A stretch of DNA of 64,000 nucleotides. It comes from Fistulifera solaris (lineage: Eukaryota). The position numbers and the translations under genes were made by a program. The notes beneath the pieces are model-generated. The model searched no databases, was not told the origin of the DNA, and saw only the letters and a list, made by a program, of their open reading frames with translations. The stretch is taken from the NCBI GenBank assembly GCA_030295235.1, contig AP026152.1:62001-126000 (forward strand). Reading direction: 5' to 3'. Below are positions 37,197 through 59,160 of this stretch, one piece after another (within the stretch, counting starts at the first letter, position 1; each line of letters opens with the position of its first letter).

Positions 37197-37249
37197 TCTG
37201 CTGTACGGCACGCCAGTTTCTAACGAAATGAAAGAAACCAGATACAGAG

Positions 37250-37904: not shown

Positions 37905-38175
37905 GATGATGACGTCAACCTGTACTTGGTCAATACCGGTTCATTGTTCTGTATCGTGCACAATGTAGGTTTACAGAGGAAGCCTGCGTCTCATCGCGTC
38001 AGTTTGTGTGAGGCTTTCTCGCCATGACGTTTTCCAAAGAAACGCTACGTAAATTTGCAGGAAAGTCTCCCAAAATGACGCGACACAAACGCAACGACGG
38101 ACACCATGAAGCGAACCCACGCGAGCGTGTCCCAAACGTGACAGACAAGCTTGTCATTGTGAGACAAGCTATACG
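37905..38175 (+). repeat. BTB-upstream palindromic element, copy B (main hairpin ~37985-38093)
   Basis: TGACGTCA, TGCGTCTCATCGCGTCAGTTTGTGTGA...TCTCCCAAAATGACGCG, TGACAGACAAGCTTGTCA. Confidence 0.9.
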
Positions 38176-38570
38176 TTCAATGTTTGTGTTAGGCGTTATA
38201 GGCGAAAGTAGCCCTGCATTGCAATTAGCCGGTGAATCATTATTACTCTCAACAATCTATCCTCGTCTCTTCTTGTTATGGAGGAAATGGTTCGATCTTC
38301 ATTGCTGACACCGTTTAATATAATTTCATGCTGATAGGCTGACGATTACCGTGGAGCTGCTATTTGAATGATGCGCCTAGTGTTTTGGATTGACTTTTGA
38401 TTACCGGAAACCGCTTGTCGCAAGATTGAAATCCGTTTTCGTGAAGCCGGTTTTCATTGAAAACCACGAATCAGATATGTTTCAAAATAAAAAGAAAGCT
38501 CGCAAAATGATGTGATACTTTCTCTCACAAAAAACACATCGTCTCATTCGCACCAAACACCGGCAAAAGG

Positions 38571-39039
38571 ATGAACAGCGACCCCAACATCAAGATGATT
38601 CGCTTGAATGTCGGAGGAACCCGCTACGATCTGTCGTTGGATACGCTGAGCCGAAGCGGAAACTCCCTTTGAAAACTATGATTCTCAGCAATGTGAATGC
38701 AGGAAAACCCTATGACCCCGTTTTTATTGACCGCAGCGGCCGTTTGTTCGAGTACGTCCTCGAATACATGCGGACAGGAAAAATTTACTTGCGACCCACC
38801 GAAAATAGCGCCGCTGTCAAGAACGAACTCGAGTTTTATGGATTCTTCGCCCCCAGCTTTCTATTTGTCGAGAATAAAAGGATTATGCCGAAGCAATCAC
38901 AGTGACCCACATTCTTCTTCGCTGTTTGACAGCCGGCGTGATGGTCAACTCAGTCCTTGTCGTCCTGGCTGCATTGGACGTTTGCGTTGGACTTGGAAAG
39001 TTGCGCGTGAGTCTCGACCTCTTCTCCATTCGAGCTTAA
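38571..39039 (+). pseudogene. BTB/POZ copy 5, two frameshifts (38668, ~38878; possibly assembly errors); corrected C-terminus is hydrophobic
   Basis: MIRLNVGGTRYDLS, VFIDRSGRLFEYVLEYMR, NELEFYG; alternate frame LTAGVMVNSVLVVLAALDVCVGLG. Confidence 0.75.
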
Positions 39040-39362
39040 AGGCACGCGCTTGATCGGATCCAACAAGATGATTCACATCGAGCGTACTACAGATTACAAT
39101 GAGATCTTAATATCTAAAGGTATAGCTTTATAATCGTTTCAAAACCAATAATGAGCTTCGATTAAAGATTTCGGCGATGGTACTTTTTGCTGATACTGTG
39201 CAAGCCATGGTAGCCTTGAGGATGATCCCCCAAATTTGAACGACCAATCAGAACTAGAGGTGTCACAAAAGAGGATGGATCAAGAACACGTTGCATTGCT
39301 TCAATTGCGCATACATTTACCGAGCAAGTAATTTGTCTATTCGGATTCATTTAGCTCTTGAA

Positions 39363-39986
39363 ATGAGGGAAGACACCATGGATAGCAGCGTCCCGTTGGA
39401 TGTTGGAGGGACTTTTTATAGAGTAGCTCGAGATACCATCGAGCATCATGGAGACTCCATGTTGTCGAGGATAGTATCCACTCACTCAAACGAGAATGGC
39501 GCGGAGAACGCTCCAATCATCTTCATTGAAGGCAACGGTCGTTTGTTCGAATATGTTCTCGATTACATGCGCACTGGCAAAGTATATTTGCCGCCTTCTG
39601 TCACCAGAGCCGCCATGAAAAAGGAGTTTGACTCCTATGGAATCCCCTGCCGATATGAACAAAGTGGTTGAGAAACATGGCAATGAATACGCTCGTGATC
39701 TTGCGGCGAGGATTGAAGCGAAGCAAAAGAGCTGGACCTGTTGAGGGCAGAAGTATTTGCATTCCAGTTGTCGCATTTGCTCGAGTTCCAGGCCTTGGCA
39801 TCGCGCCACACAGGTCCACCGTTCTGCTTGTACGTAATGGATAATGATTACCCACCTTGTTGCAAAAATAACCAAGACTTGTTACGTCAGCAGCTGGCGA
39901 GCATCGGGTTGGACCTAGTGTCAAGCATGCAATCCGGCCAAAATCAGCATTGCATCACCGTCGAGTATGCAGATATGCAATCGTAA
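39363..39986 (+). pseudogene. BTB/POZ copy 6, frameshifts at ~39645 (C-run) and ~39727 (A-run)
   Basis: VPLDVGGTFYRVARDTI, IFIEGNGRLFEYVLDYMR; C-terminal LLRQQLASIGL in the downstream frame. Confidence 0.78.
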
Positions 39987-40617
39987 AAGATAATTGAATC
40001 AGTAATGGTACACCTTTAAGTCAGTCAGCTCTCTTTGCAGGATAGCGTGATCGCGTTAGTGTCTTGTCGACGTATCGGCTCCAGTATCACCATCCACGCT
40101 TTTTCCGAATCAGAAAAGTCGATGCTGCACGTACAATACGTCAAATTATTTCTATCAAACAGCCTCAAATCGTAAATTCATCGGCGCACAGCTTCAGCCG
40201 TATCCAGCTTTCAACTGACCCTCCCGATGAGGTCAAATCAAAAGAAAATTAAATGATGATTCATTTTGGTCTTCATTCTTGTCTCTTGAGTTCACTAAAA
40301 ACTTCTATTGCACTTCATGACGCATTAGCCACTTCATGACGAGATTCCTTTTGCGTTCTGCACTTCAGGTCAATAGCGATCAAAATCGTACTCCGTATTC
40401 GACAATTCGACCGGCCGATTGGATGGCCTTGTTTCAGCAATAGATTTACGATCTTGCCCGGTTACGCATCCGCAGTTTCAATGCGCATTCCTATTCCATC
40501 ATCAACTCGAAAGTAGAGTACGTGCTAATTTCTTCATCAACGAGCTTTGTCTATCATTATTATTTTTTCAGCAATAGCAACGCGATGCTAAAACGTTTTG
40601 TTTTGCGCGACGGCACG

Positions 40618-40886
40618 ATGATGACGTCAAGCGGTACTTGGTTAGTACCGCATCGCAATGCACTATAGGATGAAATGTTGGTTTACGAAGACAGCCTGCG
40701 TCTCATCGCGTCAGTTTGTGTGAAGCTTTCTCGCCATGACGTTTTGGGAAGAAACGCCACGTAAATTTGGCAGAAAAGTCTCCCAAAATGACGCGAAACA
40801 AACGCAACAACGGACACCATGAGCGACGCCACGCGAGCGTCTCCCAAACGTGACAGACATTTCTGTCATTGTGAGTCAAGCTACGT
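40618..40886 (+). repeat. BTB-upstream palindromic element, copy C (main hairpin 40697-40806)
   Basis: TGACGTCAA, GCGGTACT-TGGTT-AGTACCGC hairpin, long inverted repeat, TGACAGA-CATT-TCTGTCA hairpin. Confidence 0.92.
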
Positions 40887-41315
40887 GAATGTAATGGTAG
40901 TTGGAGCATGAATACTGATAGCTTGCGGTTACTCATGGTTAGAAAGATGAAGAAGCAGATTCATTCACTCGGCGACACAACAATCTATCATTTGTTTCTT
41001 CGTGCGATAGAGGAAACGGTTCGATCTGCACTGTTTGACATCGTTATATATAATTCATGCTGATGGGCTGACGACTACCGTCGAGCTGCTGGATGACAGA
41101 TGCACGGCAGTTTGCTTGGGTGCGCCTAATAGCTCATAATGCTTTTCGATTGTCGAAAACGGGTCGACGAAAGATTGAAATCCGTTTTCGTGAAGCCGAT
41201 TTCGTTGAAAACCACGAATCAGATCCGTTTCAAAGAGAAAAGGAAGCTCACAAAAGGGTCTGATCATCTCTCATAAAACAACAAGTCGTTTCATTCGCAC
41301 CAAACGTCGCTAAAG

Positions 41316-41831
41316 ATGATGAGAAGTGATCCCAACAACAAGATCATTCGCTTGAACGTCGGAGGAACCCGCTATGATTTGTCGAAGGCTACGCTAGAGA
41401 AGCTCGATAAACGTTGCCGAGGCTCGTTTTTGAAGGCTTTAATCATGTACGGAATGAGTGAAGAGAAACCGGACGAACCCATCTTCATCGACCGCAACGG
41501 CCGCTTGTTCAAGTCCGTTCTCGATTACATGCGGACGGGCATGATCTACTTGTCGCCTTCCGTCAACATAACCGCATTGAAAGACGAGTTCATCTATTAC
41601 GGGATCTCGGCGAGCTGGGATAAATCGGTTGTCAAGAATGTTGTGGAGCACTTGGATGAATCGGATCCAACAACCCAGCTTAAGTATTACAAGCCAATCA
41701 AGGAAATTAAGACGACAATACATTGGAATTACATCGGAATTCTCAAGGCAGTAGGTTGGTGTTACGTTGCCTGGGGACTTACTTTAGGGGTTGGAATCAT
41801 GCGTCAGAGCAGCAAGCCGCGTGCTTATTAA
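41316..41831 (+). CDS. BTB/POZ protein, copy 7, with C-terminal hydrophobic segment
   Basis: IIRLNVGGTRYDLS, IFIDRNGRLFKSVLDYMR; YIGILKAVGWCYVAWGLTLGVGIM. Confidence 0.87.
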   Translation: MMRSDPNNKIIRLNVGGTRYDLSKATLEKLDKRCRGSFLKALIMYGMSEEKPDEPIFIDRNGRLFKSVLDYMRTGMIYLSPSVNITALKDEFIYYGISASWDKSVVKNVVEHLDESDPTTQLKYYKPIKEIKTTIHWNYIGILKAVGWCYVAWGLTLGVGIMRQSSKPRAY

Positions 41832-42202
41832 CCCGAAAGTCATCGTGACGACCGTAACGTAGAATGTAAGCCGACTTGACACTAAAGTAAGGACAACATT
41901 GTTGATACCATGAATTGCTTTTATGGCTATCCCGTCGCCTTTTACTAGTCCTCCTTCTTTTTTGTCAAGTTCTGTATGTTAGAGTATTGTTTCATAGAAA
42001 AAGCGGGACTGATTGAGTCTCAGAAGGTTGCCTGCGAAGTCACGGTTTTAATGGCACGGATTCCGCAACATCTCGCTGAATCAAACAAAGCCGATTCGAA
42101 TGCGTAACCAGCTGCTCACATCTTCGACGCCGATTGACAACGTGGGGAACGACGACGTCCAAAGTTTATGAAGCTGGTGGTTGATTTAGTGAATAGGTCA
42201 AC

Positions 42203-42505
42203 GATGACGTCAAGCGGAGGTAAATGATGACGTCAAGCGGTACTCAGTGATTACGTCACCTATCTTTTTGTATAAGAGAAACAGTAGTCGGGAGGGAAAG
42301 CCCGCGTCTCATCGCGTCAGTTTGTGTGACACTTTCTCATTTTCGACGTTTTCGAGGAAACGCCACGTAAAATGGAACAAAAAACAGTCGTCTCCCAAAA
42401 TGCCAAATGACGCGAAACAAACGCAACGACGGACACCATGAGACAATGCCACGCATCCGCACGTCGTGATGAGCATCATATAGCACGTGACAGCTTGTCA
42501 CTGTT
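42203..42505 (+). repeat. BTB-upstream palindromic element, copy D (duplicated TGACGTCAAGCGG)
   Basis: TGACGTCA at 42205 and 42228; GCGTCTCATCGCGTCAGTTTGTG...AAATGACGCGAAACAAACGC; TGACAGCTTGTCA. Confidence 0.9.
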
Positions 42506-42872
42506 GTCGTTGCGAAATTCCTGGAGCTATAGGAAACTATGATGAGTTTTGCGCAAACGGAAAAAGGTTTTGTGAGATGCCATTCACAGGTGTTGTTGAC
42601 ATTTGAAAGAATAGAACAACGCAGGATGTCATAGAATGTTCGTTATAGGTTGCGTCGTTCCCGATTCGGCTCTTCGTCGGAGACTTTCATGTCTTGTAGA
42701 AGAAGGCGTCCGTTTCACCTTTCTTTTGTAGCGAAAACGGCTCTACGAAACCGATTTTGAACGACGAAAGATGGATTTGGACCGTGATGACATCTTCCGA
42801 CAGCCGCAAGGCTCATGGTTCTTTTGCATTATAACACCATTTTTCCATTTCTTTCCCGCGTTATAAACGGAA

Positions 42873-43387
42873 ATGGCGATCAATGATACCCGAAAAATAG
42901 TTCGATTGAATGTTGGAGGAACGCAATACGATGTATCACGCGATACACTCGCACGATGCGAAGGTTCCATGTTGGCCAGTTTGGTATCGAAACAGTGGAA
43001 CGAAGGCAATACGAACAAACCCATCTTTATTGACCGCAATGGATTGTTGTTTCAATATGTTTTGGATTATTTGCGCAACAATCAATTGCATTTGCCGTCC
43101 TTTGTGAGTCGCGCCGCGATGGTCGATGAATATTTGATTTTTACGGAATCGAAGGGGATGTCCGCGTGCGCTCCGCCATCAAAGAATACGATCCGCATGC
43201 ACACATTCACGAGCTCCGGAACCAGGTGCGCTGTTGGCGGATCGCTCTGGCGGTTCTATCACTCTATCTGATAGAATGCCATCTAGTCTGGTTGAACGTC
43301 GTGGAGCGTTCTACTACCAGCGTGCTTTTGAATTTCATGATGATGTGTTTCGTGATCTATGTCATTAAGAATGGGTGGTTGCGTTGA
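42873..43387 (+). CDS. BTB/POZ protein, copy 8 (frameshift ~43132), C-terminus with hydrophobic segments
   Basis: IVRLNVGGTQYDVSRDTL, IFIDRNGLLFQYVLDYLR; downstream frame WRIALAVLSLYLI…VLLNFMMMCFVIYVI. Confidence 0.8.
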
Positions 43388-43855
43388 GCAGCAGTCGCGG
43401 GTGGGTGCTATACATTTCGACAGGAGTTGCGACAGATAGTAAGCACGGCGGGTTTATCACAGTTCAATAGAAACGACTTAATGGAAGTAACGGAAGCAGT
43501 TTCGACGCATTCGACTCGATCGTCTTATGATGAGGAAGCTGATTTAGCGTACAGGCCAGCTGTAAAGGACAAGTCATTCCTTTACCATGATCCTCGCTTT
43601 CTTTTGCTTGCTGCTCGAGACGTATGCATTTTCCTGATCCATTGGATTGAAGGACAAGAACGGAGATGCGGAGGAGTGAACTGAATAAGTGTTTTTGGCA
43701 CTTTGCTTGTGACGAAACGACTTGATGGATTTTGTGTATGGATGGTTTTCGACTGATGGATTGGGACCGAGTACTGACATTAAAGTTAGCCGCTCCATCA
43801 AAAACGTCAATTCTCTCTCATATTCTGCCTCCTGCTTGAATGATCACGTCACAAA

Positions 43856-44386
43856 ATGATTTACACTGCTTCCGAAATGAAAATTGTTTACTTGGATGTC
43901 GGCGGCACGCTTTACAAAGTATCCCGTGATACGCTGGAACGTCACAAAGGCTCCATGCTGGCAACGTTGGTATCCAATCAATGGAAAGAAGGAACGACGA
44001 ACGAACCCATCTTTATCGATCGCAATGGTCGCTTGTTTGAGTATGTGCTCGATTACTTGCGTGCCAACAAATTGTATCTGCCCGCAACCGTCAACCTCAA
44101 CGCCATGATGGACGAGTTTGTTTATTATGGAGTCGATGTGGATATGAGCAATGTCATTGAATCGCATTACAGGGCTGAGCCCAGATTGATCAACCATCCG
44201 CATCTCGTGGAACGAGTGGATCTCGCTATTCGCTCGATCAACCGGATCGAAGCGAAGCTATTGCAAGTGGACTTGTCCCATCTAACCTCGAGAGTCTACT
44301 TTAACATTCTGTTTATGGAATTGGCCCGATCGGCTCTTTTGTCGGACTCAAAGCAATTGTTAAGGCTTGTAAAAATCAAGGTGTAA
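43856..44386 (+). CDS. BTB/POZ protein, copy 9
   Basis: IVYLDVGGTLYKVSRDTL, IFIDRNGRLFEYVLDYLR. Confidence 0.88.
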   Translation: MIYTASEMKIVYLDVGGTLYKVSRDTLERHKGSMLATLVSNQWKEGTTNEPIFIDRNGRLFEYVLDYLRANKLYLPATVNLNAMMDEFVYYGVDVDMSNVIESHYRAEPRLINHPHLVERVDLAIRSINRIEAKLLQVDLSHLTSRVYFNILFMELARSALLSDSKQLLRLVKIKV

Positions 44387-44892
44387 CAGTAAGCTAATCA
44401 AAGCGTGACGGATGCCCCTAGTTCCATCATGATCCCTAGTTTCTACAAAATGGTTAAAGTAAATTGCTAGGAGCTACTGGGTCCCGGTTTCTTTTGCTCC
44501 TTTAGTTATTTGTAGTTCTTTTCATTCCACCGACCAACGAATGATAACGAAAAAGCCGTTGAACCAAGAACAACATCCCCACTAATCTGGGAAAATGCTT
44601 TCAAATACCCTATCTAGGTCAATCCCCACGTGCCGGTACGATGGAGTACAAAAATCACATGTCAAGAGCGTGTGTCACGGACCAAGATCGGTTTGACTAT
44701 GACTCGAAGAATACGACCAACACACGATGTTGTGTCGTGCCAAAAATTCCGCCCCCGTGTCTTTTTGCCCATTGTCTCGCGATACTAGAGTGAGCGCACC
44801 TCTTTCATTTTGCTCACCCTGCCAAACATAAGGAACTTTCGCAAACATTCTCATCATCATTCGCATTTGAATTCATAATCATCAACAACAAG

Positions 44893-45555
44893 ATGATGAG
44901 TTATCATGACAAAGGCAAGATTGTGCGACTCAATGTCGGCGGAATGCGCTACGATGTTTCGCGCAGTACACTCGAACGTTGCGAAGGTTCGATGCTGATT
45001 AGCTTGATTTCAGAACACTGGAAAGAAGGGAATTCCGACGAACCGATCTTTATTGATCGCAATGGTCGCTTGTTTGAATATGTGCTGGATTATTTACGAA
45101 CCGCCAAAGTGTATTTACCCGCCACTGTCAGTCCTCTCGCTTTGGAAGAAGAATTTGAATTTTACGGCATCGAGGCGGATATGACGAAAGTGCAATGCAT
45201 GGACGCCAGCATGGGATCGTTGAATGCCTTGTACGAAAGTCATTACTTGTTGGGTTTGGCGGACCAAATATCGGCCGAAGCGTATACGACCGCGGCCCGG
45301 AGAGCCGTCGAAAAGAGTTTGCGGAAAAGTGACATTGCACCGAAACCGTCTCGTGAAATACCCTTCTTTATTCTGGTGGAATGTTACAAACGCAATCCGA
45401 CCCCGGGAGCGTCCTTTTGTGTCTACATTCCCGAAGAATATCAGCCGCATTTGGATACCGACCTCGTGAACAATATTTTGACCAATCGCGGCTTTGAAAT
45501 TGTGAATTCGGCGTTCAAGCACTTTTTGTACATTAAGAAGGTTTCGGAAGGATGA
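44893..45555 (+). CDS. BTB/POZ protein, copy 10
   Basis: IVRLNVGGMRYDVSRSTL, IFIDRNGRLFEYVLDYLR, ILTNRGF. Confidence 0.9.
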   Translation: MMSYHDKGKIVRLNVGGMRYDVSRSTLERCEGSMLISLISEHWKEGNSDEPIFIDRNGRLFEYVLDYLRTAKVYLPATVSPLALEEEFEFYGIEADMTKVQCMDASMGSLNALYESHYLLGLADQISAEAYTTAARRAVEKSLRKSDIAPKPSREIPFFILVECYKRNPTPGASFCVYIPEEYQPHLDTDLVNNILTNRGFEIVNSAFKHFLYIKKVSEG

Positions 45556-45913
45556 GAAGACTGCTATAGGTCAAGCGCTGGTACAAGAGTTATCAAGATG
45601 AAGAGGGCGACGCCGAAGCTAGGATAGCACGGTCTTCGTCATCGAATCATCGCAACGCATAGATCGTGAATTTATTCTCGATCCGTGATGGAGGGGATGT
45701 TTGCATGTATTCCATGGGGGACGAATATCATTATTTTCCGTATCTATATAGAGGGGAAGAAGTTACATCGCGCCTTTTACCTGATATTTACTAGATGAAG
45801 AAGTTCACCCTAGCTATAGAAGAACGCATTTGCTCTGGCATTGGTACTTTGGGTCGTGCTTCCTGCGTCATAATTTACGATCAATGAAACTTGGGAGCGA
45901 GGGAGAGCAATGA

Positions 45914-46318
45914 GTGATTGATCGATTGACGAAAGAGATTAAAGAACACAAGGGTGCTATCGAAGAAAAGGAGAGACAAGTAGCTGCGATCGTCGAGTCC
46001 TATCGTCTGACGCATCAATATGCAGAAACCGTCGCAAAGAAGAGCGGTAAAGGTTTTTCGACACACTCGTTCCCTGTGGAAGGAACTATTGACAAGAAAT
46101 TGCTGCACGAAATCTTGCTTTCCCGCGGACTCGATGCCTACTTCTATCAGAATGCGAAAGAGGGAGCACGGGTTATACTAGGTCCCATTGCAGAAGAGGA
46201 TAAAAGGATCTATGGCGAGAAACGCACCGGCTTTCGGTTTTCATTTGATGAAAGCAAAACGACACCTCTTGCTTCCACGGCCAGCAAACGTAGGTTCATG
46301 AGAGTTAAGAAGCGCTAA
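45914..46318 (+). pseudogene. 5'-truncated BTB-family remnant (coiled coil plus C-terminal domain only)
   Basis: IDRLTKEIKEHK…VAAIVESYRL…LLHEILLSRGL, close to 50070-50340; no BTB coding sequence upstream. Confidence 0.8.
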
Positions 46319-46371
46319 GCTGCTTTAAGCCTTAAGTTCAGTTTAAATGTGTCAGATAACTGTTGCCAATA

Positions 46372-47160
46372 TCCCAGATAATTTTTTATGTCCCACTTCT
46401 GGGACATATCGCCTCGCCAACCCTCGCCAAAAATTTCATGTCCCAGTTAGTGGGACATAATCTTTGAGCCCTCCAATGAAACGCTTCCACTTGTAAGAAT
46501 TAAAATAAAAAATGAATCATAAATACTTTTCCTCGTTGGGGTTCGGGTGAAAGTGTTTTGAAGTTCGTAGCACGCCGCTTCGTTGAGTTTTGGTCTTCCA
46601 AAAATATAGAGCGTCTTTATTTTCCGTCAAAATCGGCCGACGCCACCAAAACACAATAAAAGCAGCTCAAAAGCCCATCAATCACATAGAAGAGGAACAA
46701 CTTGTGCTTGCCCGTTCATATCTCGCACAAGGCATGTCGGAACCTGTAAAATATGTTTTATCTGGGCGAAACTGCCTTTTTATGGCCATTTGAACGACGA
46801 TGAATTGTGCGACGACCATCAAACATCGTCACAAAAAACACACAAAACGAAAGATATTCATCTTGTAAACAATCAAACAACACACAAAATAAACTAAAGA
46901 TACGTTAGAATAAAGATAGAGCGTTATTTATTGTGTTTAACAAAGGTTTTTATTAGGAATTTATTCATTTAGTTAATTGCTCTGTTGTGTTTCTTTTCAT
47001 CCGACAAGTCAAGCTTGCTCGTGATTGCCCTTTTGTACTACATCCTACGTGAAATTTGTGTAGGAATATGTCCCACTTCTGGGACATATCGGGCCTGTGT
47101 AGACGTGGTACAAGCCCTACGTATGTGTCCCAGAAGTGGGACATAAAAAAATATCTGGGA
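46372..47160. mobile_element. Non-autonomous TIR element (MITE), ~790 bp, flanked by TA
   Basis: TA|TCCCAGATAATTTTTTATGTCCCACTTCTGGGACA ... TGTCCCAGAAGTGGGACATAAAAAAATATCTGGGA|TA; four (A)TGTCCCA-n4/5-TGGGACAT palindromes; AT-rich non-coding interior. Confidence 0.88.
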
Positions 47161-47473
47161 TATAGTTCTTAGATGAAACATGGGAAATCACGGCTGGAAA
47201 CTTTCTACTAGTATGTCGTACGGGTAACTATTCTCGTCATCGAAGCGCATCGATCTTCGATCTGGGAAGGATGCGTGGAATACATGTCGTTTCTCTTTTA
47301 TGAGCAAACGGTCCTTTCATTACTTGTGAACGTCGAGCCCCCGCCTGCGGGAAGCACGATAGTACGAACACAACTCCCGGCGGCTAGTGTAAAGAGAAAG
47401 AAGATGTAGTCGTTTACTGCGAAAAATACAGCAGTGAAGACTATCCGTCTGCCCAAAAATAAAAACACCATGT

Positions 47474-47760
47474 TTACTATAGTCCAAAGTGTTTGATATA
47501 TTTCCACGACTGCACTTCAGTCATGAATCAATATTCTGTATTGAGCGACAATGCTGCCTATGCAATGCGTTCAATCGCCAAATTAATTGTACTGAGCTTC
47601 ACTTGTCGTTGTCGCAATGAAAAAGTCTTTATCAGCGTTTGCGTTACACGCCATTCTATTTTTACGTCGCAAAGCCTGCGAAAAACGTTGTCTGCCCGTA
47701 ATTTACTATAGACCCAAAGTGTTGGTTTAAGGAGACCGCGACTGCATTTTTCAGTCATGA
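47474..47760 (+). repeat. Two tandem copies (47474, 47704) of CTATAG/hairpin dispersed element
   Basis: TACTATAGTCCAAAGTGTT...CACGACTGCACTTCAGTCATGA and TACTATAGACCCAAAGTGTTGGTT...CGCGACTGCATTTTTCAGTCATGA. Confidence 0.8.
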
Positions 47761-48754: not shown

Positions 48755-48874
48755 GAACGAGACGACGCCCCTTGTGGATCCAGCGACCATTAGTGCAGCG
48801 ACGCCCAAAATGACTAGGAAGGTAGTGAGAGTCCGCCGCTTTGAAACGCCTGGGGAATGAATTCGGCGAATCCG

Positions 48875-49231: not shown

Positions 49232-49411
49232 GTGACGTCAAGCGGTACTAAAATGAAGGCAGTATACCACAAATAGTAGCTCAACCAAGAAGGCTTGCGT
49301 CGTTTCAAGTCATTTTGTGTGACGCTTTCTCGGTTTCGACGTTTTCGAGGAAACGCCACGTAAAATGGAAGAATTCTCCCAAAATGACACGCGAAAAACG
49401 AAAGACGTGAC
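49232..49411 (+). repeat. BTB-upstream palindromic element, copy E
   Basis: TGACGTCAAGCGGTACT; GTCATTTTG...CAAAATGAC perfect arm pair; CGACGTTTTCGAGGAAACGCCACGT. Confidence 0.88.
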
Positions 49412-49598
49412 AAAATGGAGGACAAGAGTGACGAAAATTGCGTCATGCACGCGATAACGACTCAATAAAACCGCAAGGGCCTCCTTCTCCTTTGCTTCAA
49501 TGATTGATTGCGTTGCTTTTGCTTGAATAATCATTTGATCCGTTGCTCAATCAAAATATGTATACGTTCGTTTATGGACCTTTTCGCCCGAATTGACT

Positions 49599-50431
49599 AT
49601 GGGGGATACTCGCATCAAGAAAACACGATTCTCGTTAGACGATAACCTCAATGAAGGCTTCGAAAACCTCACCGTCGAAGACGCTAAGGAAGAAACAAAT
49701 GTATATTCTTTCACATTCGGAAAGAAAACAGAAGAAAACAACGTCCCGCCTCCCACCAAGACTTTTCATCGCGACTTAGTTTGCTTGAATGTTGGGGGAC
49801 TCCGCTATGAAGTCTCTCGGACGACGATGACGCAATACGAAGGTTCCGTGCTAGACAGCTTGGCGAAGACGTGGAACGAAGAAAAGTTCAACAGCGAAAT
49901 CTTCGTGTTCCGCGACGGGAGTTTGTTTGCGTATGTTTTGGATTATCTGCGATCGGGTAAGGTATATTTGCCGTATTCGATTGCGCGGGCCGCTCTGCAA
50001 GAAGAATTCGATCACTTTCAGATTCCTGCGGACATGGAAAAGGTTTATGTGGAAAAGACTACTTCACCATTGATCGACTGACGAAAGAGATCAAAGAGCA
50101 CAAGGACGCGATTGAAGAGAAAGAGAGGACCGTCGCCGCCATCATTGAATCCTATCGTCTAGCACACAACCTTACGGCCTCTGTCATGAAGCATGGGTTT
50201 GATTGGTCCAAGGTGGTGACACCTAGCTTTACTGTTACGCCGGGCATCGACAAGAAACTGCTGCGCGATTGTTTGCTAGCGCAAGGAGTCGAAGTGTATG
50301 GTTACCGGATGGAAAATTTTGAGGCGCGCATTTCATTAGGACCCATTCAAGACGAAACTGGAGGAACTCCCTGCAATGGCGCTTACCGCAAGACGGCTAC
50401 TGGATCGCCATTTCGCTTCTTTGATCCATGA
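49599..50431 (+). CDS. BTB/POZ protein, copy 12 (ESYR subfamily; frameshift in an A-run ~50053)
   Basis: LVCLNVGGLRYEVSRTTM, IFVFRDGSLFAYVLDYLR; downstream frame AAIIESYRL…LLRDCLLAQGV. Confidence 0.83.
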
Positions 50432-51064
50432 TGAATGTGAGAAATTGCGCCCATCCAGGAAAACGCCGGGCATATAGCTCTCCAAATTCCATGATTCATG
50501 ATTGAGAAACCATCACGACTGTTTTCACTCTCCCTTGCTCTACATCGTAGCAGCAGCATTCTTCGATTAAGATAAGAAAATATTTATTTACGCACGTAAT
50601 TCTAGTCAAAGCCTACTTTGTTTGCGCGGCTATGATTATAGGCAATGACGTCGCCGTCTAGTCGTGATTCACACACGTTCCGCGTGACTCCAACAAGGAT
50701 TTTGACGTGAAACGCAAAAATTTGTTGCATTATGCTGCGAACGTCAAAAGCAACGATACAAAGTGCTTCTCCATTATCGTAACAATAAGTTATTTCTTGA
50801 GAGCGCGACTACGACTGTTTTCTCTGTTTCGATACTGGAAGACGAATAAAGTAGAAGCGAGTCCGGTTTTCACGCAAAGGGGCGGCGAGAAGACGTTTCC
50901 TTTGATCATTATTGCAGCTCTCCGTTTCTCTTCAATAACTCGTGTGAGAACGGATCAACAACTTTACTACTCGGCACGACTCAAGAACACACTTGCAAAG
51001 AAACGCATTGTCTCATAAACTCTTGTCGATAAGTTTCGTAAAGCAACAAAGGATCACCAGCAAG

Positions 51065-51787
51065 ATGACATTGACCGCAAATGAAACGTTTCCTACGGAA
51101 CAAGCTCCTGAGATTCCTTCGACTACAGCAAGTGAGAGCCAGTCGAATGATACGCCTGATGTCACGCCGACAACTCCCCGCAGTCCGCGAGAAATCGTCC
51201 GCTTGAACGTGGGAGGCACGCGATACGAAGCATCCCGCAACACTCTGTTGCGGTTTGAGGATTCGATGCTGGCCAGTCTCATTTCCGGCAAATGGAAAGA
51301 AGGAGAAGGCGATGAAGAAATCTTTATCGATCGCGATGGACGTCGTTTCGGGTATATTTTGGAGTATTTGCGCTCCGACCGTGTGCATTTACCGCATTTG
51401 TCGGCCCGGTCTGCTTTGATGGAAGAGTTTGAGTACTTTGGGATTGATGCCGATGAGAGCAAGATTCTGGTCCAGCACGACTTTATGTGTCTCGATCAAC
51501 TCAAGAAAGAAATCATGCTTCATCAAGCCGCTATTGCTGAGAAGGAACGGGAAGTGGCGGCCATTCTGGAATCCTATCGTATGGCCAAGGAATTTTCCGA
51601 GTACGTCAAATCATGGGGATTGAATGTTATGATGCAGATATCGGTGCAGCAGAATGTCGACCGAGAGATGCTTCGTGAATGCTTAATGTCGCGGGGACTT
51701 AAGGTGGACAACTACAAAGTGAAAGAAGATGGAACCGTCATTGCCCATCTTGTTTCGCTGGGGATGTCTGGTCACGCCCGAAAATAA
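51065..51787 (+). CDS. BTB/POZ protein, copy 13 (ESYR subfamily)
   Basis: IVRLNVGGTRYEASRNTL, IFIDRDGRRFGYILEYLR, AILESYRM, MLRECLMSRGL. Confidence 0.9.
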   Translation: MTLTANETFPTEQAPEIPSTTASESQSNDTPDVTPTTPRSPREIVRLNVGGTRYEASRNTLLRFEDSMLASLISGKWKEGEGDEEIFIDRDGRRFGYILEYLRSDRVHLPHLSARSALMEEFEYFGIDADESKILVQHDFMCLDQLKKEIMLHQAAIAEKEREVAAILESYRMAKEFSEYVKSWGLNVMMQISVQQNVDREMLRECLMSRGLKVDNYKVKEDGTVIAHLVSLGMSGHARK

Positions 51788-52095
51788 TAGCAGCTAAAAA
51801 TGCATATTGAAGAAAACTACTCCGTAGCATTTTATCTAGACGGGACTTGTACATGACTAGCCATTCAAGCGTGATACAAAGTTCCGTTCGCAACGAAGAA
51901 GCTTCCACACAAGTTATTAACAGTGGAGCCGCTAAATCGTGGAGATCGAAAAGACCATTCTGCAAGCAGTGACTCAACGGTCGCATCGTGTCAATCTTTT
52001 CATCCATTCTTACATCGAACCGTGGATTTTGCGTATCCATCCTTCATAAAACTGGCTTGTTGTTGCGATCAATAGCAATATACACCCCCACAAGA

Positions 52096-52743
52096 ATGAC
52101 GAAAAGCGCTAGTACAGGTACAAGCAAAATCGTTCGATTGAACGTCGGTGGCACACGACATGATGTTTCTCGCAGTACACTCGAACGATGTGAGGGCTCC
52201 ATGCTGGCAACTTTGATTTCGGATCGTTGGAAAGAAAGCGCCTCCGACAAGAATGAAACTGTTCTCATCGATAGCAGGGGTCATTCCGTTGTAAGTGACA
52301 CGGAGCCTATTTTCATCGATCGCAACGGATTGTTGTTTCAGTACGTGCTCGATTATCTACGTGAGGGTGAAGTTTACTTGCCATCGACTGTAAGCCGTGC
52401 TGCTGTGTTGAAGGAGTTCGATTTCTATGGAATCGATGCGGATACAAGCAAATTGGTTGAGAAGTACGGTGTCGACTACTATCATTCGATAAGAGAGAAA
52501 GCCGAAGCACTCGACAACGAACTGCGCGCCATTCGAATCGCTTCCGAGGCCGAGAGCAAGTTTTGGAAGTCGGCCTCCAGGCATTCTTCTGTCTCTGTAA
52601 CATTGTCTGATGATGACAGGTCCCATATGAACGAAGATTTGGAAACATTGTTACGCGCAAGACTATTTGAAAGGGGGCTAAAACTTGATTCGCAAGTCAC
52701 TTATTTCGTCAATGTCAGCAGAGCAATTTCAAGAGGAAAGTGA
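52096..52743 (+). CDS. BTB/POZ protein, copy 14 (loop insertion in BTB)
   Basis: IVRLNVGGTRHDVSRSTL, IFIDRNGLLFQYVLDYLR, LRARLFERGL. Confidence 0.9.
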   Translation: MTKSASTGTSKIVRLNVGGTRHDVSRSTLERCEGSMLATLISDRWKESASDKNETVLIDSRGHSVVSDTEPIFIDRNGLLFQYVLDYLREGEVYLPSTVSRAAVLKEFDFYGIDADTSKLVEKYGVDYYHSIREKAEALDNELRAIRIASEAESKFWKSASRHSSVSVTLSDDDRSHMNEDLETLLRARLFERGLKLDSQVTYFVNVSRAISRGK

Positions 52744-53274
52744 CAACGCTTGAACAAGACATCGTCCAGTCAGCGGATTTGTGGACGTTGTCGGACCGAG
52801 CGATTCTTGTAGTACTATCCTATAATGTTTGCGCAGTGAGGTAAAGGTAACTTTTGTCGGTGGTGGCCGTCGTCACCATCATTCGATCTTCGTTACTTTA
52901 GAAAAAATCAGCATTTTGGAGCACGTAGATTTATCTGCAGCATCTGAAACTCTCGAAGATCGATAACAGCCTCCATAGTCCACCTGACAATTGGCCATAG
53001 TCGTTCATCGATCATAGTCGTCCTTCGATCGCCTTTATGCCGCGATCTGCGAGCCAACAACCCAGCGTTGAAGCTGTACGTAGCAGGAATGTTTATGCTG
53101 TTGAATAACCCTTAGTTGCGCGGAAAGAAAATTTCAATTCAACGCCCAATCAAATTTGAAGGCTCGACGGATTCGCCACTCGATAACTCTTTCCACGGTC
53201 TTGCGCTCCTGAAAAGCATCTTTTCTCATAAAATCCAGTCCGTTGATTCCATTCTGCTGGCATACAAACGAAAA

Positions 53275-53880
53275 ATAACGAGTAGCAATAACGAAGGCAA
53301 GATCGTTCGACTGAATGTCGGAGGTACACGATACGACGTCTCGCGCGATACGATGGAGCGCTGCGAAGGGTCCATGCTGGCAAGCTTGATATCGAAAGAT
53401 TGGAAAGAACGTAACAGCCCGGAACCTATCTTGATTGACTGCAGCGGGAGATTGTTTGAGTATGTTCTCGAGTATCTGAGAACAAATGAGGTCTACTTGC
53501 CCACTCTTGTGGACCGAACGGCTTTGGAAAAAGAGTTTTCGTTTTATGGCATCGAAGTGGATATGAAGAACGTCCATGAAAGAAACGGTCGAAAATATAT
53601 TGAAGAAATAGCCCCGAGAATCGCATCCGCTCAAAAAGACCTGGACTTGTTAACCGTTGAACGCCTCGCCATTGAAACAGCTGCTTTCGTCGAACTCAAA
53701 TACGTGCAATCAAGACCATACCAAATCAGTTTGCCTGATGAAGTTGATGATTCTGCGCTGCTTCAGAAGTACCCCGAATTTTTCCGTGAACGCTTACTTG
53801 ACAGAGGATTGTTGTTTCAGTCAATCGGAGTGGACAGGAATAAGTCTTGGTATATTAAAGTTCAAAGCGTAGATACTTGA
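53275..53880 (+). CDS. BTB/POZ protein, copy 15; ATA at the expected start position
   Basis: IVRLNVGGTRYDVSRDTM, ILIDCSGRLFEYVLEYLR, FRERLLDRGL; no in-frame ATG before the BTB. Confidence 0.82.
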   Translation: MTSSNNEGKIVRLNVGGTRYDVSRDTMERCEGSMLASLISKDWKERNSPEPILIDCSGRLFEYVLEYLRTNEVYLPTLVDRTALEKEFSFYGIEVDMKNVHERNGRKYIEEIAPRIASAQKDLDLLTVERLAIETAAFVELKYVQSRPYQISLPDEVDDSALLQKYPEFFRERLLDRGLLFQSIGVDRNKSWYIKVQSVDT

Positions 53881-54236
53881 TACACGAAATCACAGAAGGC
53901 AATGTAAAGTACTCTACAAAACACCGAACTGCAAAGAGAGAATAAGCCGCTTCTGTTGAATCATCAATCATCATTAATTCAGCACGCGTTGTAGATTGCT
54001 CGCGGTGTATTTTTATGCTCGTAGCTATCGTTACTTAGAATGAGCGCTCTCGTTTCTCTTCTGTGACGCACATGTATAGAAGATCGATAACATCAAATGG
54101 GATTGCGTTATGGTGTTATTGTGTCGTTGAGCGGCCGTAAAATAGTAAGATCGCCATGGTCATCGTCGTCGAACACGATCCTTGCGGTCGTCGATCTTCG
54201 TCTGCGCTGCCGCCCGTTTCCGAAAATTCGAAGGAA

Positions 54237-54497
54237 AAGCGGCACTCAGTGATTACGTCACTCACGCTTTGTATCCAAGGAAAAGTAGTCTGGAGGGAAA
54301 GTCTGCGTCTCATCGCGTCAGTTTGTGGGACACTTTCTCATTTTCGACGTTTTCGAGGAAACGCCACGTGAAAAATGAAGCAAAACTCTCTCAAAATGAC
54401 GCAAAACAAACGAATAAACTCGGACACCATGAGAATTGCCACGCGACACGCCAGCTCTATCCGCATGTGACAAGTGACAAATACCTTGTCATTGTGA
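54237..54497 (+). repeat. BTB-upstream palindromic element, copy F
   Basis: AAGCGG, TGCGTCTCATCGCGTCAGTTTGTG...CAAAATGACGC, TGACAA-ATACC-TTGTCA; closest to copy D. Confidence 0.9.
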
Positions 54498-55171
54498 GGA
54501 TATTAATGAGACGTAAGACATGCATCCATTATGACGCAAGCTTCCAAATAGATACGCGAGGCCCCGATCTCCATTTTTTACCCTACAAAGTATCGAGACC
54601 TTTGTGAGGCTGGCCGATGCTTCCGTTTGCATCCATTGTGAACACAAACCGTCTCGAAAGCTTCCGCCGAGTCCACAAAAGACTCTTATCATCATCAGAG
54701 CAAATCGAATAAGATCGTGCGCGGCATCAAAACGACGGCGTGAACGACCCGCCAACCGCCACAATCCGACGTCTGTTCTGTAGCAGTATCTTCGAATCAA
54801 TCAAAATTGGCTACAAGTGGAGTTATCAACAACCGACTGTCGGCGCTCCTTATGTCAGCATATTTTTAGAACTGAAACCGATTTGCGGCAATAAAGCAAG
54901 TGACATTGGGAAAGGAACGCGTTCTTGTACGAGTCGTCACACGATTCGCATCCGATGGAAAAACTTCCGATTCCCCGTGATGTTCCGAAGCGCGACTATC
55001 GCGATTTCTTCGATGTAACGGCAAGTACCGTGGTAGCAACTTCGAGGGGAAGGTGACTTGGAATGGTTCGCAAAAGAGAACTCGGATTAATGTTTTACTC
55101 GACGAGACGAATAAGAGTGATTGCATAAAGTTCATAGCAACTCGCTCTCGCCATACGAATCTTTCAAAACA

Positions 55172-55795
55172 ATGACGACGGAAGAAACGAAACCCAAAGT
55201 TGTTCAGCTGGACGTTGGAGGCACGCTTTATAAAGTATCACGGGACACGCTCGAGCGTTGCGAGGGATCGATGCTGGCCAGTTTGATCTCGGATCAATGG
55301 AAGGAAGGAAATACTGACGAACCGATCTTCATTGATCGCAACGGTCGTTTGTTTGAGCATGTACTGGACTATTTGCGCGCCAGCAAAGTGTATTTGCCTT
55401 CGACAGTCAACATCGAGGCGGTGAAAGAGGAGTTTGAGTTTTATGGGATTGACGCCGATATGAGTGAAGTGCACGAAAAGTACGGTCACAAGTATCTACA
55501 CGAGCTTAATGAAAGGATTCGTGTCCAAGAAGAGAGCTTGTACGCATTAAAGGCGGAAGCCCATGCCATTCAAGCGTCCATGATGGTCGAGCATGAATTC
55601 TTCAAAGAGCATGAGACTCCCTACATTCCGGTCCCCGAGGAGTATCGACCAAAGCGTCACACGCGGTGCATTGATTTGCCGGAAGAGTATAGACCCTTTG
55701 ATAAAGAAACGCTGCGCACCTGCTTGCAACAGAGAGGTTTCAAAATGAATCGAGCCGATCGAGACTACGTTTCCGTCGAGGACATGGAAAGCTAG
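55172..55795 (+). CDS. BTB/POZ protein, copy 16
   Basis: VVQLDVGGTLYKVSRDTL, IFIDRNGRLFEHVLDYLR, LRTCLQQRGF. Confidence 0.9.
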   Translation: MTTEETKPKVVQLDVGGTLYKVSRDTLERCEGSMLASLISDQWKEGNTDEPIFIDRNGRLFEHVLDYLRASKVYLPSTVNIEAVKEEFEFYGIDADMSEVHEKYGHKYLHELNERIRVQEESLYALKAEAHAIQASMMVEHEFFKEHETPYIPVPEEYRPKRHTRCIDLPEEYRPFDKETLRTCLQQRGFKMNRADRDYVSVEDMES

Positions 55796-56228
55796 CATGC
55801 GAGAAAAGTAATACCAATTCGCTCGTTCACTTTCTATTTTTTCTCTTGTAGAAATACAGGAGTCCCATTCTCGTGACTGCGCTAATATTGAGAGATGATT
55901 GGTAGACAATAACCATCAACCATCTGCAATCCTACTACGAATTCTTGGCTACGTTAAGCGTCAGGACGCACTTCGAAATTATAAAAAGATCCCGACGAAT
56001 GTCCGCATGTCGCACCGGGCGCCTCCTCTAGAAATCGTATCTTCGCGATGACGAGATCTTTTCGACGAAAATGTTTCGGGCAATTTTTAGGTTTTGGGGA
56101 ATAACAATGTCTGTAAGAGTAAACGCAGCATTTCTCCGTCGTTTTGTAGCGAATACAAAAGATCAAGAACGATTCGAACTGTAGAGAGATACCAGCATTG
56201 AAAGCATAAGGCATTTGCAAGGGACAAG

Positions 56229-56945
56229 ATGGCGCGACGAAAAAACAAATCTATTGCGAAAAGGGCGGCGAAGAAGAACGGTAATAGCCCTCCTCAGACT
56301 TCTCAGAGGGAAGGCGGTAGTCCTCAAGGTGATGAACAAAAACCAACCGTTCGATTGAATGTAGGAGGTATGCGCTATGAAGTAGCTCGAGATACCTTGA
56401 TGTTTTACGAAGATTCGATGCTCGCGAGTCTGGTATCCGGCAGATGGAAGGAAGGCAATGGTGAAGATGAAATCTTCATCGATCGCGACGGACGTCGATT
56501 TGGATTTCTTCTGAATTATCTACGTTCGGATCGAGTTTATCTGTCAGAGTCTTCAGATCAAGCGGCTCTCGAGGATGAATTCGAGTACTTCGGAATCGAT
56601 GCAGATATGAGCAAAGGTTTCATTGAAGAACGACTTTGTGTCTGTGAAAGAGCTCACTCAAGAGATTGAAGAGCACGAAGAATTCATCAAGGAGAAAAAG
56701 AAGAAAATTGCTGCAATAAAGGAATCTTATCGCTTGGCTAGTGACTTTACAAGTCGCACCGACAGCCAAGGTTTATATGTGCGACATAATGTCGGCGTTG
56801 CTATTGACAAAGAAATGCTCCGAGAATGCTTCTTTCTCGAGGATTGTTCGTAGTTTCGTACAATGATGAACAGGCTAAGCAGACAGTCGACATCTGTTTT
56901 ATTTCTTTGAAACACAAATACGCCAAGAAAGCTGGATCTAACTGA
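56229..56945 (+). CDS. BTB/POZ protein, copy 17 (ESYR subfamily; frameshifts ~56615 and ~56833)
   Basis: VRLNVGGMRYEVARDTL, IFIDRDGRRFGFLLNYLR, AAIKESYRL, MLREC..SRGL. Confidence 0.82.
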
Positions 56946-57304
56946 CACTACTTTACCAATACTAGGGAACTAGAATGGATCCTTTTATCTGTGTCGCTAG
57001 CAGGGGGAACAGTGAAATTGTTAGCGCAATCTTTGTTGATCATATTATACCTCTTCGTCCTCTGTGTTTTATCATGACGGAACAATAGAATTCTAGGACA
57101 TCATTCAATGATTAAATCATTGAGTCCAGGATCTTTAGCCAGGCAATCGCTCATAGTTCTAGAAAGGATGGTGCCAAAGAAATTCTAATGGTCATCACAC
57201 ATCTTTCTTTGACGAACATCTCGAAGAAAACTTCATAGAACGAGCCCTTTTGTCAATGCTAGTCGCCACGACTGGACTCCTGTCACGGGCACTGGCCTGT
57301 TAAA

Positions 57305-57400
57305 CCCGTACCAGGTACCGGTACCGGTACCGCACCGGTACTACGTAGTAGCTAGTACCAGGTAGCCCCTGCTGAATGTTGAATGCTGAATGCTGAGAAG
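57305..57400. repeat. Low-complexity GTACCG/GTAC and GAATGCT slippage repeats
   Basis: CCGTACCAGGTACCGGTACCGGTACCGCACCGGTACTACGTAGTAG...CTGAATGTTGAATGCTGAATGCTGA. Confidence 0.75.
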
Positions 57401-57404
57401 CTGC

Positions 57405-57590
57405 TGACGTCATTCACAATCACGCGGTACTCAAAGTGCGGATGCGTTTCTCACTTTTGACGTATTTCGAAGAAAAGCCACGTGAAATGGGGCGGAAAGT
57501 CTCCCAAAATGACACGAAAGTAAAGAAACCATGCGAGCTCTTGTCCGTCTGTGACGACACTTCTTGTCATTGCAATAAGACAAGCTACGT
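57405..57590 (+). repeat. BTB-upstream palindromic element, copy G (internally deleted)
   Basis: TGACGTCA, GCGGTACT, TTTCTCACTTTTGACGT...GCCACGTG...AAAGTCTCCCAAAATGAC, TGACGA..TTGTCATTG, GACAAGCTACG. Confidence 0.82.
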
Positions 57591-58055
57591 GGGACATGGT
57601 GTGCTTGTTGTTGCTACTAGCACCATGGGATTCATCGCTGTTAAAAACTAGTTATTGTCGTGATGGCCTTTGCGATCCACGCTATCCTTGAAAACAGAGA
57701 AACGGCTTTGTTAGACTAAAGAGAGAGTGTGAGAAAGACTCTCGTGCCGCCTTGCCTCTTTCAAAGGAACCCTCTTCGTGCACCTCTTTCACAGCGATAT
57801 ACGATTGCAGCGGAAGTTTCTCATTTTTATGTTCAGACGAGTTTCTTGTTTGAGAAAAAAGTGCATGCGCGCACACGGACGAAAGGGGACGCAACATGTG
57901 TTTGCCCTCTTATTAGTATCGTGTCAGCCTGTCCCAGATTTAGCAGACGTCGACAAATGCTTATGACAGAACCAACGGCCCGACAAGCAATTTTCAGAAA
58001 TTGCGAGGCTCTCTTCGTTCGCTGGTTTCGTTGACCTCACATTGGAAACGCAAGG

Positions 58056-58703
58056 ATGCCACGACGAAAGAAACAAGCGTCTTTGGACGGAAAGACTGAT
58101 AACATAAACACTGGTATCGTCCGTTTGAACGTGGGTGGCACTCGTTATGAGGCAGCACGCTTAATGCGATTTGAGGGATCCATGCTCTCTAATCTCATTT
58201 CGGGCAAATGGAAAGAAGGAAATGGACAAAACGAGATCTTTCTGGATCGCGATGGCAAGTTGTTTGCTTACATCTTGGCGTATTTGCGTTGCAATCGAGT
58301 CTATGTGCCCGACCTCTCCGTTCAATCAGCGCTCCGAGATGAGTTTCAGTACTTTGGTATTGATGCCGACATGAGTAAAGTGTCTGTCACGGACGACTTT
58401 GTGACGATCAACGAGCTCAGCAAAGAGATTAAAAAGTCGGAAAAGGCCAACCTTCAGAAAAAGAAGAAGATTGCTGCCATCAAAGAATCGTATCGTTTGG
58501 TCGGTGAGTTTTCGGTCCTGGCGGAGACGTTAGGTCTGTACTTGCGACATGATATTGACGATAATGTGGACAAGAAGCTACTCCGCGCGTGTCTGCTGTC
58601 GCGGGGACTTCACGTCGTTAGCTACAACACTGATTCGATGCCACATACCGTCGATCTCTGTGTCATTGGATTGAAGGACAAGTTCGATAAAAGTGGCGAG
58701 TAG
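58056..58703 (+). CDS. BTB/POZ protein, copy 18 (ESYR subfamily)
   Basis: IVRLNVGGTRYEAA, IFLDRDGKLFAYILAYLR, AAIKESYRL, LLRACLLSRGL. Confidence 0.89.
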   Translation: MPRRKKQASLDGKTDNINTGIVRLNVGGTRYEAARLMRFEGSMLSNLISGKWKEGNGQNEIFLDRDGKLFAYILAYLRCNRVYVPDLSVQSALRDEFQYFGIDADMSKVSVTDDFVTINELSKEIKKSEKANLQKKKKIAAIKESYRLVGEFSVLAETLGLYLRHDIDDNVDKKLLRACLLSRGLHVVSYNTDSMPHTVDLCVIGLKDKFDKSGE

Positions 58704-58938
58704 GATAATCTATCGAGTAGACAACAAAGCTTTAAGCTGCTCTATTCAGCTTCTTTTATTAACAGTGTCCTTCATAAACTTCCTTCCATTTTAGATGTTT
58801 TGGGACTTCTATGCTATCGAGCAAAGAAAAATCATTTTGCAAATTCTCGGTTATTTTCGAGCAACCTAATCCGGAGTAGGTCTCTCTAGCTCCCTCGCTA
58901 GCTAAACTACACTAAGATTAGGCGTAACTGCGAGTCCC

Positions 58939-59160
58939 AAGCGGTACTGCACTGTCTTGTCAGATGTACTAAATTTCGGAAAGCCTGCGCTGTTTCTCGT
59001 CACTTTGTGTGAGGCTTTCTCGCCATGACGTTTTGGGAAGAAACGCCACGTAAATTTGGCAGAAAAGTCTCCCAAAATGACGCGAAACAAACGCAACAAC
59101 GGACACCATGAGCAAAACCACATACCAGGTAATACAAGTTAATGCCACGCGAGCGTCTCT
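58939..59160 (+). repeat. BTB-upstream palindromic element, copy H
   Basis: AAGCGGTACT; 59014-59113 identical to 40725-40824. Confidence 0.92.

Follow-up and report, generated by a model that had tools for sequence, protein, structure and literature searches.

Why should a noncoding block be kept nearly base for base in front of some members of a tandem gene array and not others? The question is raised by a 64,000-nucleotide stretch of the diatom Fistulifera solaris (assembly GCA_030295235.1, contig AP026152.1, positions 62,001 to 126,000 of the forward strand; hereafter, the window), in which a block of ~210 bases lies upstream of eight of 20 tandem genes for BTB_2 proteins. The initial annotation, made from the sequence alone, described the block as a hairpin element whose structure is maintained and offered three options for it, i.e., a recombination site that shuffles BTB units, a structured RNA or small-RNA precursor, or a palindromic promoter. 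Among these options, the palindromic promoter fits the evidence best. On balance, we favor the idea that a subset of the BTB genes has this element in common as a promoter and 5′ leader module, which would be bound by bZIP-type factors and whose copies would be kept alike by selection together with ectopic gene conversion.

The upstream block and its eight copies

A profile built from the eight copies and run with nhmmer over the 64 kb returned exactly eight plus-strand matches (E 1e-26 to 1e-60; Table 1) and none in positions 1-30392, in agreement with the initial count of eight co-oriented copies and none in the housekeeping half. The only other matches with E <0.05 were five in number, each of a copy against its own reverse strand, and the family as a whole therefore has palindromic symmetry. 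All eight copies are oriented along the BTB genes (binomial p = 0.008), and the end of the element lies 97-738 nt from the next BTB ATG. Thus, the copies do precede BTB open reading frames (ORFs), as had been claimed, although this is partly trivial because, where genes are co-oriented, any gap between them is followed by a gene. The genes that carry the module are those at 30731, 38592, 41340, 42894, 49774, 55196, 58116, and 59606.

The element opens with a 5′ box, (TGA)TGACGTCAAGCGGTACT, which is complete in copies A to E, doubled in D (TGACGTCA at 42205 and 42228), displaced in G, and reduced to AAGCGG[CT]ACT in F and H. A variable spacer of 20-50 nt separates this box from a core of ~145 nt that runs from AGCCTGCG through GGACACCATGAG; 3′ of the core follow a variable stretch and, in six of the eight copies, a short stem-loop. 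Reading of the sequences places an ATG within CAAAATGAC in seven of the eight copies and the ATG of CCATGAG in all of them. The arms of the long hairpin within the core are not equally preserved: in copy A, the right arm has diverged and contains an insert of ~20 nt, no hairpin forms, and the BTB ATG (30722) follows 97 nt past the end of the element, while in copy G the left arm is deleted and the right half is still conserved. Copy B lies 113 nt from the ATG (37792, minus strand) of a divergent DUF3605 gene. Because it is situated between divergent genes, copy B is not the 3′ end of an upstream plus-strand gene. The TGACGTCA box of this copy is about 118 nt from the DUF3605 ATG (37792-37910) and could, therefore, serve both divergent genes.

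The exact core pattern (TTTCTC..GACGT..GARAMGCYACGT) had no match in metagenome contigs and none in viral contigs, and among 18 distant metagenome BTB loci (28-62% identity) nhmmer found none with the element (best E 2.9). Within the window, the region 5′ of an element-less, apparently expressed BTB gene (44893) has no similarity to the module. A literature search confined to main texts returned no account of this element, nor of palindromes situated upstream of arrayed BTB genes in diatoms.

Table 1. Positions of the BTB_2 array, the upstream element, the small stem-loop, and the putative conversion tract in the window
Feature	Position	Strand	Profile match	Plus-strand fold z	Basis and remarks
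BTB_2 array (PF02214, T1/KCTD-type), 20 domains	28929..61584	all +			Pfam
Copy A	30393..30625	+	30393-30625	−0.55	nhmmer E 3e-41; TGACGTCA at 30401
Copy B	37905..38118	+	37905-38118	−5.5	Profile; long hairpin about 37994-38083
Copy C	40617..40830	+	40617-40830	−3.4	Profile; TGACGTCA at 40622; long hairpin about 40706-40796; conserved ATG 40819
Copy D	42196..42450	+	42218-42450	−1.6	Profile; 13-nt insert in right arm
Copy E	49225..49422	+	49225-49422	−1.0	Profile; z −3.3 on minus strand
Copy F	54221..54434	+	54221-54434	−1.8	Profile, alignment; without TGACGTCA; TTACGTCA at 54253
Copy G	57405..57539	+	57411-57539 (partial)	+0.6	Profile positions 95-202 only; TGACGTCA at 57405
Copy H	58922..59119	+	58922-59119	−3.6	Profile
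Small stem-loop, B	38138-38157	+			
Small stem-loop, C (GTGACA..TGTCAT)	40850..40869	+			Pattern scan, pairing
Small stem-loop, D	42487-42501	+			
Small stem-loop, E	49428-49446	+			TGACG/CGTCA
Small stem-loop, F	54474-54492	+			
Small stem-loop, G	57551-57570	+			One G.T pair
Putative gene-conversion tract, C and H	40715..40823 (C); 59004-59112 (H)	+			Identity contrast, Fisher p 1e-5

ACGT boxes, conservation, and exchange between copies

The evidence for a promoter and leader module comes from the boxes in the block and from the way in which the copies have diverged. First, the block contains TGACGTCA, GCGTCA, TGACGT, CACGT, and TGACGC boxes arranged as inverted repeats, and each copy has 2-6 ACGT-core octamers, or 3-6 ACGT-core boxes, together with GCGTCA/TGACGC, so placed that boxes of both orientations lie upstream of the gene. 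Compared to the rest of the window, the elements are enriched 22x for TGACGT, 11x for TGACGC, 48x for TGACGTCA, and 4.9x for ACGT; because the copies are homologous, these counts are not independent. Seven of the nine TGACGTCA sites in the 64 kb are at elements, and the upstream regions of most element-less BTB genes are without such boxes. The spacing between TGACGTCA and the (T/C)GACGT of the core is 104-116 nt in five of the eight copies.

Boxes of this kind are known from diatom promoters. Passages of one report give CCRE-1 TGACGT, CCRE-2 ACGTCA, and CCRE-3 TGACGC as bZIP motifs, CCRE being the CO2/cAMP-responsive element (PMC4915529), and passages of another describe TGACGT/C as the bZIP11 target, present as a "typical tandem invert repeat" on both strands of the CO2-responsive promoters of PtCA1 and PtBST1 (PMC11142338). 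As far as these passages go, the module resembles the CCREs of Phaeodactylum PtCA1, PtCA2, and PtBST1 in having the same hexamers, on both strands, inverted and within about 100 nt, upstream of genes. It differs from them in that its boxes are part of a 145-nt block that is conserved near base for base across paralogs and has pairable arms of 30 nt. Similarly, the aureo box TGACGT of aureochromes is described, in the sections of PMC4937327 that treat it, as occurring more than once with motifs 100-150 bp apart, a spacing to which that of TGACGTCA and the second (T/C)GACGT of the module may correspond. By contrast, copies F and H are without the upstream box, and this likeness is one of motif only.

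Farther afield, the variable exons of protocadherins are each preceded by a conserved sequence element, which is the promoter element of a clustered paralog array. By analogy only, the module may be compared to it as a short promoter block that is conserved above its coding sequence and repeated along a tandem array; organism and motif are different, and promoter choice is no part of the comparison.

Second, the element has not diverged in step with the genes that it precedes. Core identity between copies is 67-93%, compared to 47-72% for the BTB-domain DNA of the same units, and the two are uncorrelated (Spearman −0.14 to −0.15, p 0.44-0.49). Thus, divergence of the element does not simply track that of the duplicated BTB units, a possibility raised in the initial annotation. 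Being better conserved than coding DNA and uncorrelated with it, the element is constrained or homogenized rather than neutral.

Third, the copies have exchanged sequence. Only the element and the BTB domain can be aligned between units; the intervening 100-700 nt cannot, copies B and C excepted. The B and C units are homologous over about 950 nt (74%); this homology begins abruptly with the 5′ box and reaches into the BTB coding sequence, as far as homology at the level of the domain extends. From TTTGTG to CCATGAG, copies C and H are identical at 108 of 109 positions, while B and C agree at 98 of 108 over the matching stretch, even though B and C are closer by descent. In the 22 nt to the left of this tract, H matches C at 15 of 22 positions and is nearest to A (17 of 22; Fisher p 1e-5), and the BTB domains of the C and H units are 55% identical. 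Copies C and H, therefore, share a mosaic tract, which, judged by this contrast in identity, is a gene-conversion tract. Given this tract and the ~950-nt B-C duplicate, copies B, C, and H represent a single lineage and cannot be counted as three independent witnesses. The tract would provide a clear example of a promoter undergoing concerted evolution independently of its genes.

We suggest a model whereby an upstream palindrome of the cAMP-responsive element type, TGACGTCA, followed by AAGCGGTACT and the variable spacer, leads into a core in which GCGTCA, TGACGT/CGACGT, CCACGT, and TGACGC boxes would serve in inverted arrangement, and then into an A/C-rich block that ends in the conserved ATG and precedes the short GTGACA..TGTCAT stem-loop of six copies. 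Dimeric bZIP-type factors would bind the ACGT-core boxes on both strands, as in diatom CCRE and aureo-box promoters. Transcription may start near the 3′ end of the core, and the small stem-loop and an upstream ATG would, therefore, be in the leader. The inverted arrangement of the ACGT boxes would give the block its palindromic look, and the long hairpin would be a by-product of it that has been sharpened in the B/C/H lineage; the extended arms of these three copies exceed box inversion and are treated here as such lineage-specific sharpening. Purifying selection on the boxes and ectopic gene conversion between homology islands would jointly account for the likeness of the copies, and the regulatory output would be exerted on eight of the 20 tandem BTB_2 genes. 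If this model is correct, the element is a diatom regulatory module that is compact and conserved to an unusual degree, in which bZIP boxes at set distances are combined with a leader and a small stem-loop, and it offers a handle for finding co-regulated members of the large and poorly understood BTB/T1 family. In another diatom, BTB/POZ families are biased toward expression in sexual reproduction, according to passages of PMC7335047.

Several observations count against a shared promoter and leader. Twelve of the 20 BTB genes do not have the module, and its carriers are dispersed on the tree of the 20 BTB domains (7 changes vs. 6.5 for shuffled labels). A core promoter would be expected at a tighter distance from the BTB ATG, unless the leaders are long or contain introns, and the near-continuous conservation of ~145 nt exceeds what separate binding sites of 6-8 nt usually need. 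Conservation above that of coding DNA can also be explained by a functional RNA or by recent copying. Moreover, the variable loops, the A-T / G.T / G-C series, and the stem extensions of the small stem-loop fit RNA better than protein sites.

Pairing in the long hairpin and the alternative readings

The long hairpin is strong only in copies B, C, and H (−32 to −36 kcal/mol, z −3.4 to −5.5); on the plus strand, it folds weakly in D, E, and F and does not form in A (z about −0.6) or G. Both strands fold about equally, i.e., there is no strand asymmetry. Pairing is decayed or lost in five of the eight copies, and the halves that remain in G and A are still conserved. When the hairpin derived from copy C is laid across all copies, 76% of the cells pair, compared to 36-56% with the partner slid; therefore, the inverted repeat is real. 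The quoted arms of copy C are present as the initial annotation described them, and so is the perfect pairing of GTCATTTTG with CAAAATGAC in copy E, where the rest of the pairing is weak. Of the two small hairpins said to flank the long one, the TGACA..TGTCA stem is found in six of the eight copies, and the 8-bp GCGGTACT/AGTACCGC stem is confined to copy C.

The arms had also been said to co-vary between copies. RNAalifold detected no consensus hairpin among the eight copies (−0.58 kcal/mol, 9 pairs) and 0 compensatory pairs. In the outer helix, 11 of 13 pairs deviate through broken pairs alone; changes on both sides are seen at 2 of the 34 pairs of the C-derived hairpin, a number that 413 of 500 shuffles attain, and the covariation score of this hairpin is the same as at a slide of −3. 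The claim had been built on GCCA pairing with TGGC in C and H and CATTTT with AAAATG in D and F at the same place. The two pairings, with column sums of 103 and 99, are four alignment columns out of register, and on this alignment they are alternative local pairings in two lineages, so that no single pair co-varies. Conservation is highest in the apical part (column identity 0.85 on average, with 13 of 25 columns invariant; arms 0.81 and 0.79), which is the opposite of what is expected of a hairpin whose stem matters. Altogether, changes break pairs, the apical part is conserved above the arms, and the three well-folding copies represent one lineage. The long hairpin is not a conserved structure, and the claim that the structure itself is maintained fails.

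These results bear on the idea that the block functions as RNA, either as a structured 5′ leader that throttles translation of the BTB mRNAs or as a small-RNA hairpin precursor that acts on the family. We regard this as unlikely. Transcription would have to begin upstream of the long hairpin, e.g., about 30 nt past a semi-conserved GTAT, and the leader would then contain the hairpin, the upstream ATGs, and the small stem-loop. Such a leader would explain why B, C, and H fold well, why cells of the long hairpin pair at a frequency that slid controls (≤56%) do not reach, why both upstream ATGs are conserved, and why the entire 145 nt are. It would also accommodate the small downstream stem-loop. 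The pattern GTGACR-N3-14-YGTCAT has 7 matches compared to 0.62 expected, and six of these follow a copy on the plus strand (B, C, E, G, and, twice, F); copy D has the variant GTGACA-GCT-TGTCAC, and the stem is absent behind A and H. The stems are 5-7 bp long with loops of 3-10 nt and are extended by different pairs in each copy. At position 5, copies B, C, D, and F have A-T, copy G has G.T, and copy E has G-C; G.T pairs are workable on the plus strand only. In these stem-loops, 91% of the cells are paired vs. 24-63% when slid, and double changes occur at 2 of 8 pairs, a number that 89 of 500 shuffles attain in this set of six sequences. Under the promoter and leader model, too, these observations are suggestive of a real plus-strand RNA stem, which may be functional in the leader. 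In B, C, and F, the stem-loop is followed by GTGAG, a candidate splice donor of a leader intron.

For the long hairpin, by contrast, the RNA interpretation meets copies in which the hairpin is absent (A and G) or weak (D, E, and F), the lack of a consensus fold, compensatory changes that are not in excess, and equal folding of both strands. The loop is conserved above the arms, unlike in microRNA-like precursors, and A and G are unfolded. Past the conserved ATG, the reading frames differ as a result of a 1-nt indel between B and C. At E ≤1, no copy has a match in Rfam 15, and a tRNA scan detected nothing at the copies. A coding first exon starting from the conserved ATG was considered separately and ruled out: the B/C indel is located right after the ATG, and the frame in B stops after 11 codons.

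Decidedly improbable is a second alternative, in which the element is the relic of a mobile element, e.g., a solo long terminal repeat, a foldback element, or one similar to a miniature inverted-repeat transposable element (MITE), with its own promoter and retained or co-opted 5′ of BTB genes. The copies are discrete islands of homology in otherwise unalignable intergenic DNA, have a palindromic core and a 5′ end that begins with TG, and belong to carriers scattered over the BTB tree; the copies that fold best are at the same time the closest to one another in sequence, which would be expected of pairing that is lost as copies grow older. With several copies containing an imperfect palindrome of roughly 90 nt, the element does resemble MITEs and foldback elements. 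It differs from these in being conserved past the arms, in its uniform orientation, and in showing no sign of high copy number in one DNA run. Specifically, conservation reaches outward from the arms by at least 15 nt on the left side and at least 35 nt on the right, and the palindrome is, therefore, not a unit on its own. The edges fade gradually, and on reading, the flanks have no consistent target-site duplication. One candidate for such a duplication, TGAGA on both sides of copy B, was rejected as part of a TGTCATTGTGAG motif that is common to B, C, and F. All eight copies have one orientation with none in the other 30 kb of the window, and Pfam analysis of the 71 ORFs of the window found neither a transposase nor a reverse transcriptase. 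In the DNA run, the elements are covered to a depth of 11-29, much as their surroundings are, while a true repeat at 47.1-47.7 kb reaches 169.

The exchanges between copies leave room for a further proposal, to which we attach little weight, namely that the module is also a recombination hotspot in which breaks caused by hairpin or cruciform extrusion would be repaired from other copies, and in which the module and the conserved BTB domain would delimit an exchangeable unit of ~0.95 kb composed of promoter, leader, and BTB sequence. In that case, regulatory and coding parts would be reshuffled in a cassette-like manner without a dedicated recombinase, and the C/H tract and the B-C unit would be its footprints.

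That the palindrome is a single-strand or cruciform site shuffling BTB cassettes in the manner of integron attC is scarcely credible: the array of co-oriented ORFs with imperfect palindromes between some of them and the exchanges that did occur (the 108/109 tract of C and H, and the B-C unit, which has the element at one end and BTB coding sequence at the other) recall such a system, but the RYYYAAC/GTTRRRY pair is present in none of the eight copies (E has a single RYYYAAC), and neither a tyrosine recombinase nor any other is encoded by the 71 ORFs, as the initial annotation had already noted for boxes and integrase. The element accompanies only eight of 20 genes and is on their 5′ side, whereas a cassette has its site at the 3′ end. 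Copies A and G no longer have the stem, the exchanges are accounted for by ordinary homologous gene conversion with its anchors in the two shared islands, and the context (GrpE, S5, HGH1, a split cation-efflux gene) is eukaryotic. An attC site retains its structure and is free in sequence; the element, by contrast, has retained its sequence and, in some copies, given up pairing, and its center is conserved above its base. The analogy fails on every feature that could be tested, and the claim of a eukaryotic integron-like cassette system is thereby removed.

The BTB array and its surroundings

The right-hand 36 kb of the window consist of the BTB_2 array, interrupted by a gene for a peptidase of family U32 and by the minus-strand DUF3605 gene. 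The left-hand part encodes GrpE, ribosomal protein S5, a homolog of HGH1, and an EF-hand protein and contains the split cation-efflux gene. For two proteins, the nearest Atlas clusters have Bacillariophyta as their commonest group, which points to a diatom as a lead only. The peptidase U32/DUF3656 (collagenase-type) gene extends over three reading frames at 32153-34857, between the first two BTB genes and the remaining array; this family is mainly prokaryotic. Some BTB domains are followed by a second, coiled-coil-like coding block that is 63-79% identical between occurrences (45917-46008, 48419-48510, 50069-50160, and 51491-51582), and at 45914-46315 the block makes up an ORF without a BTB domain.

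Within the array, summed depth in the DNA run increases ~8-fold at 47070-47745 (169 vs. about 20), with many joints and loose ends, and this stretch is probably a dispersed multi-copy repeat. Of the sequencing runs, X1 behaves as DNA. Contigs of the runs X2-X4, the kind of run being a guess, lie over some BTB ORFs (44809-45652, 49605-50582, 54955-55128, and 59474-59679). Among the run-contig records listed, no piece covers copies C to H, and there are no joints near these copies. Among the same records, the window and the run contigs differ by single-base indels at 42265, 43601, 44336, 44762, 46428, and 48747, and further at 50052, where three runs agree, 50715, 51795, 52901, 59168, and 60253. 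Some apparent frameshifts in BTB ORFs (38571, 49599, 53272, and 61281) may, therefore, have arisen in the assembly, in which case they do not mark pseudogenes.

The housekeeping half contains tandem repeats of its own. A 52-nt unit is present in seven to eight tandem copies at 10186-10736, directly 5′ of the GrpE gene (10933-11649), and overlaps an ORF without a Pfam match. Repeats of 33-34 nt, which belong to one family (TTTTCAC..TCCAGAAAATCTGG-like), are found at two loci, 2192-2432 and 12730-12864.

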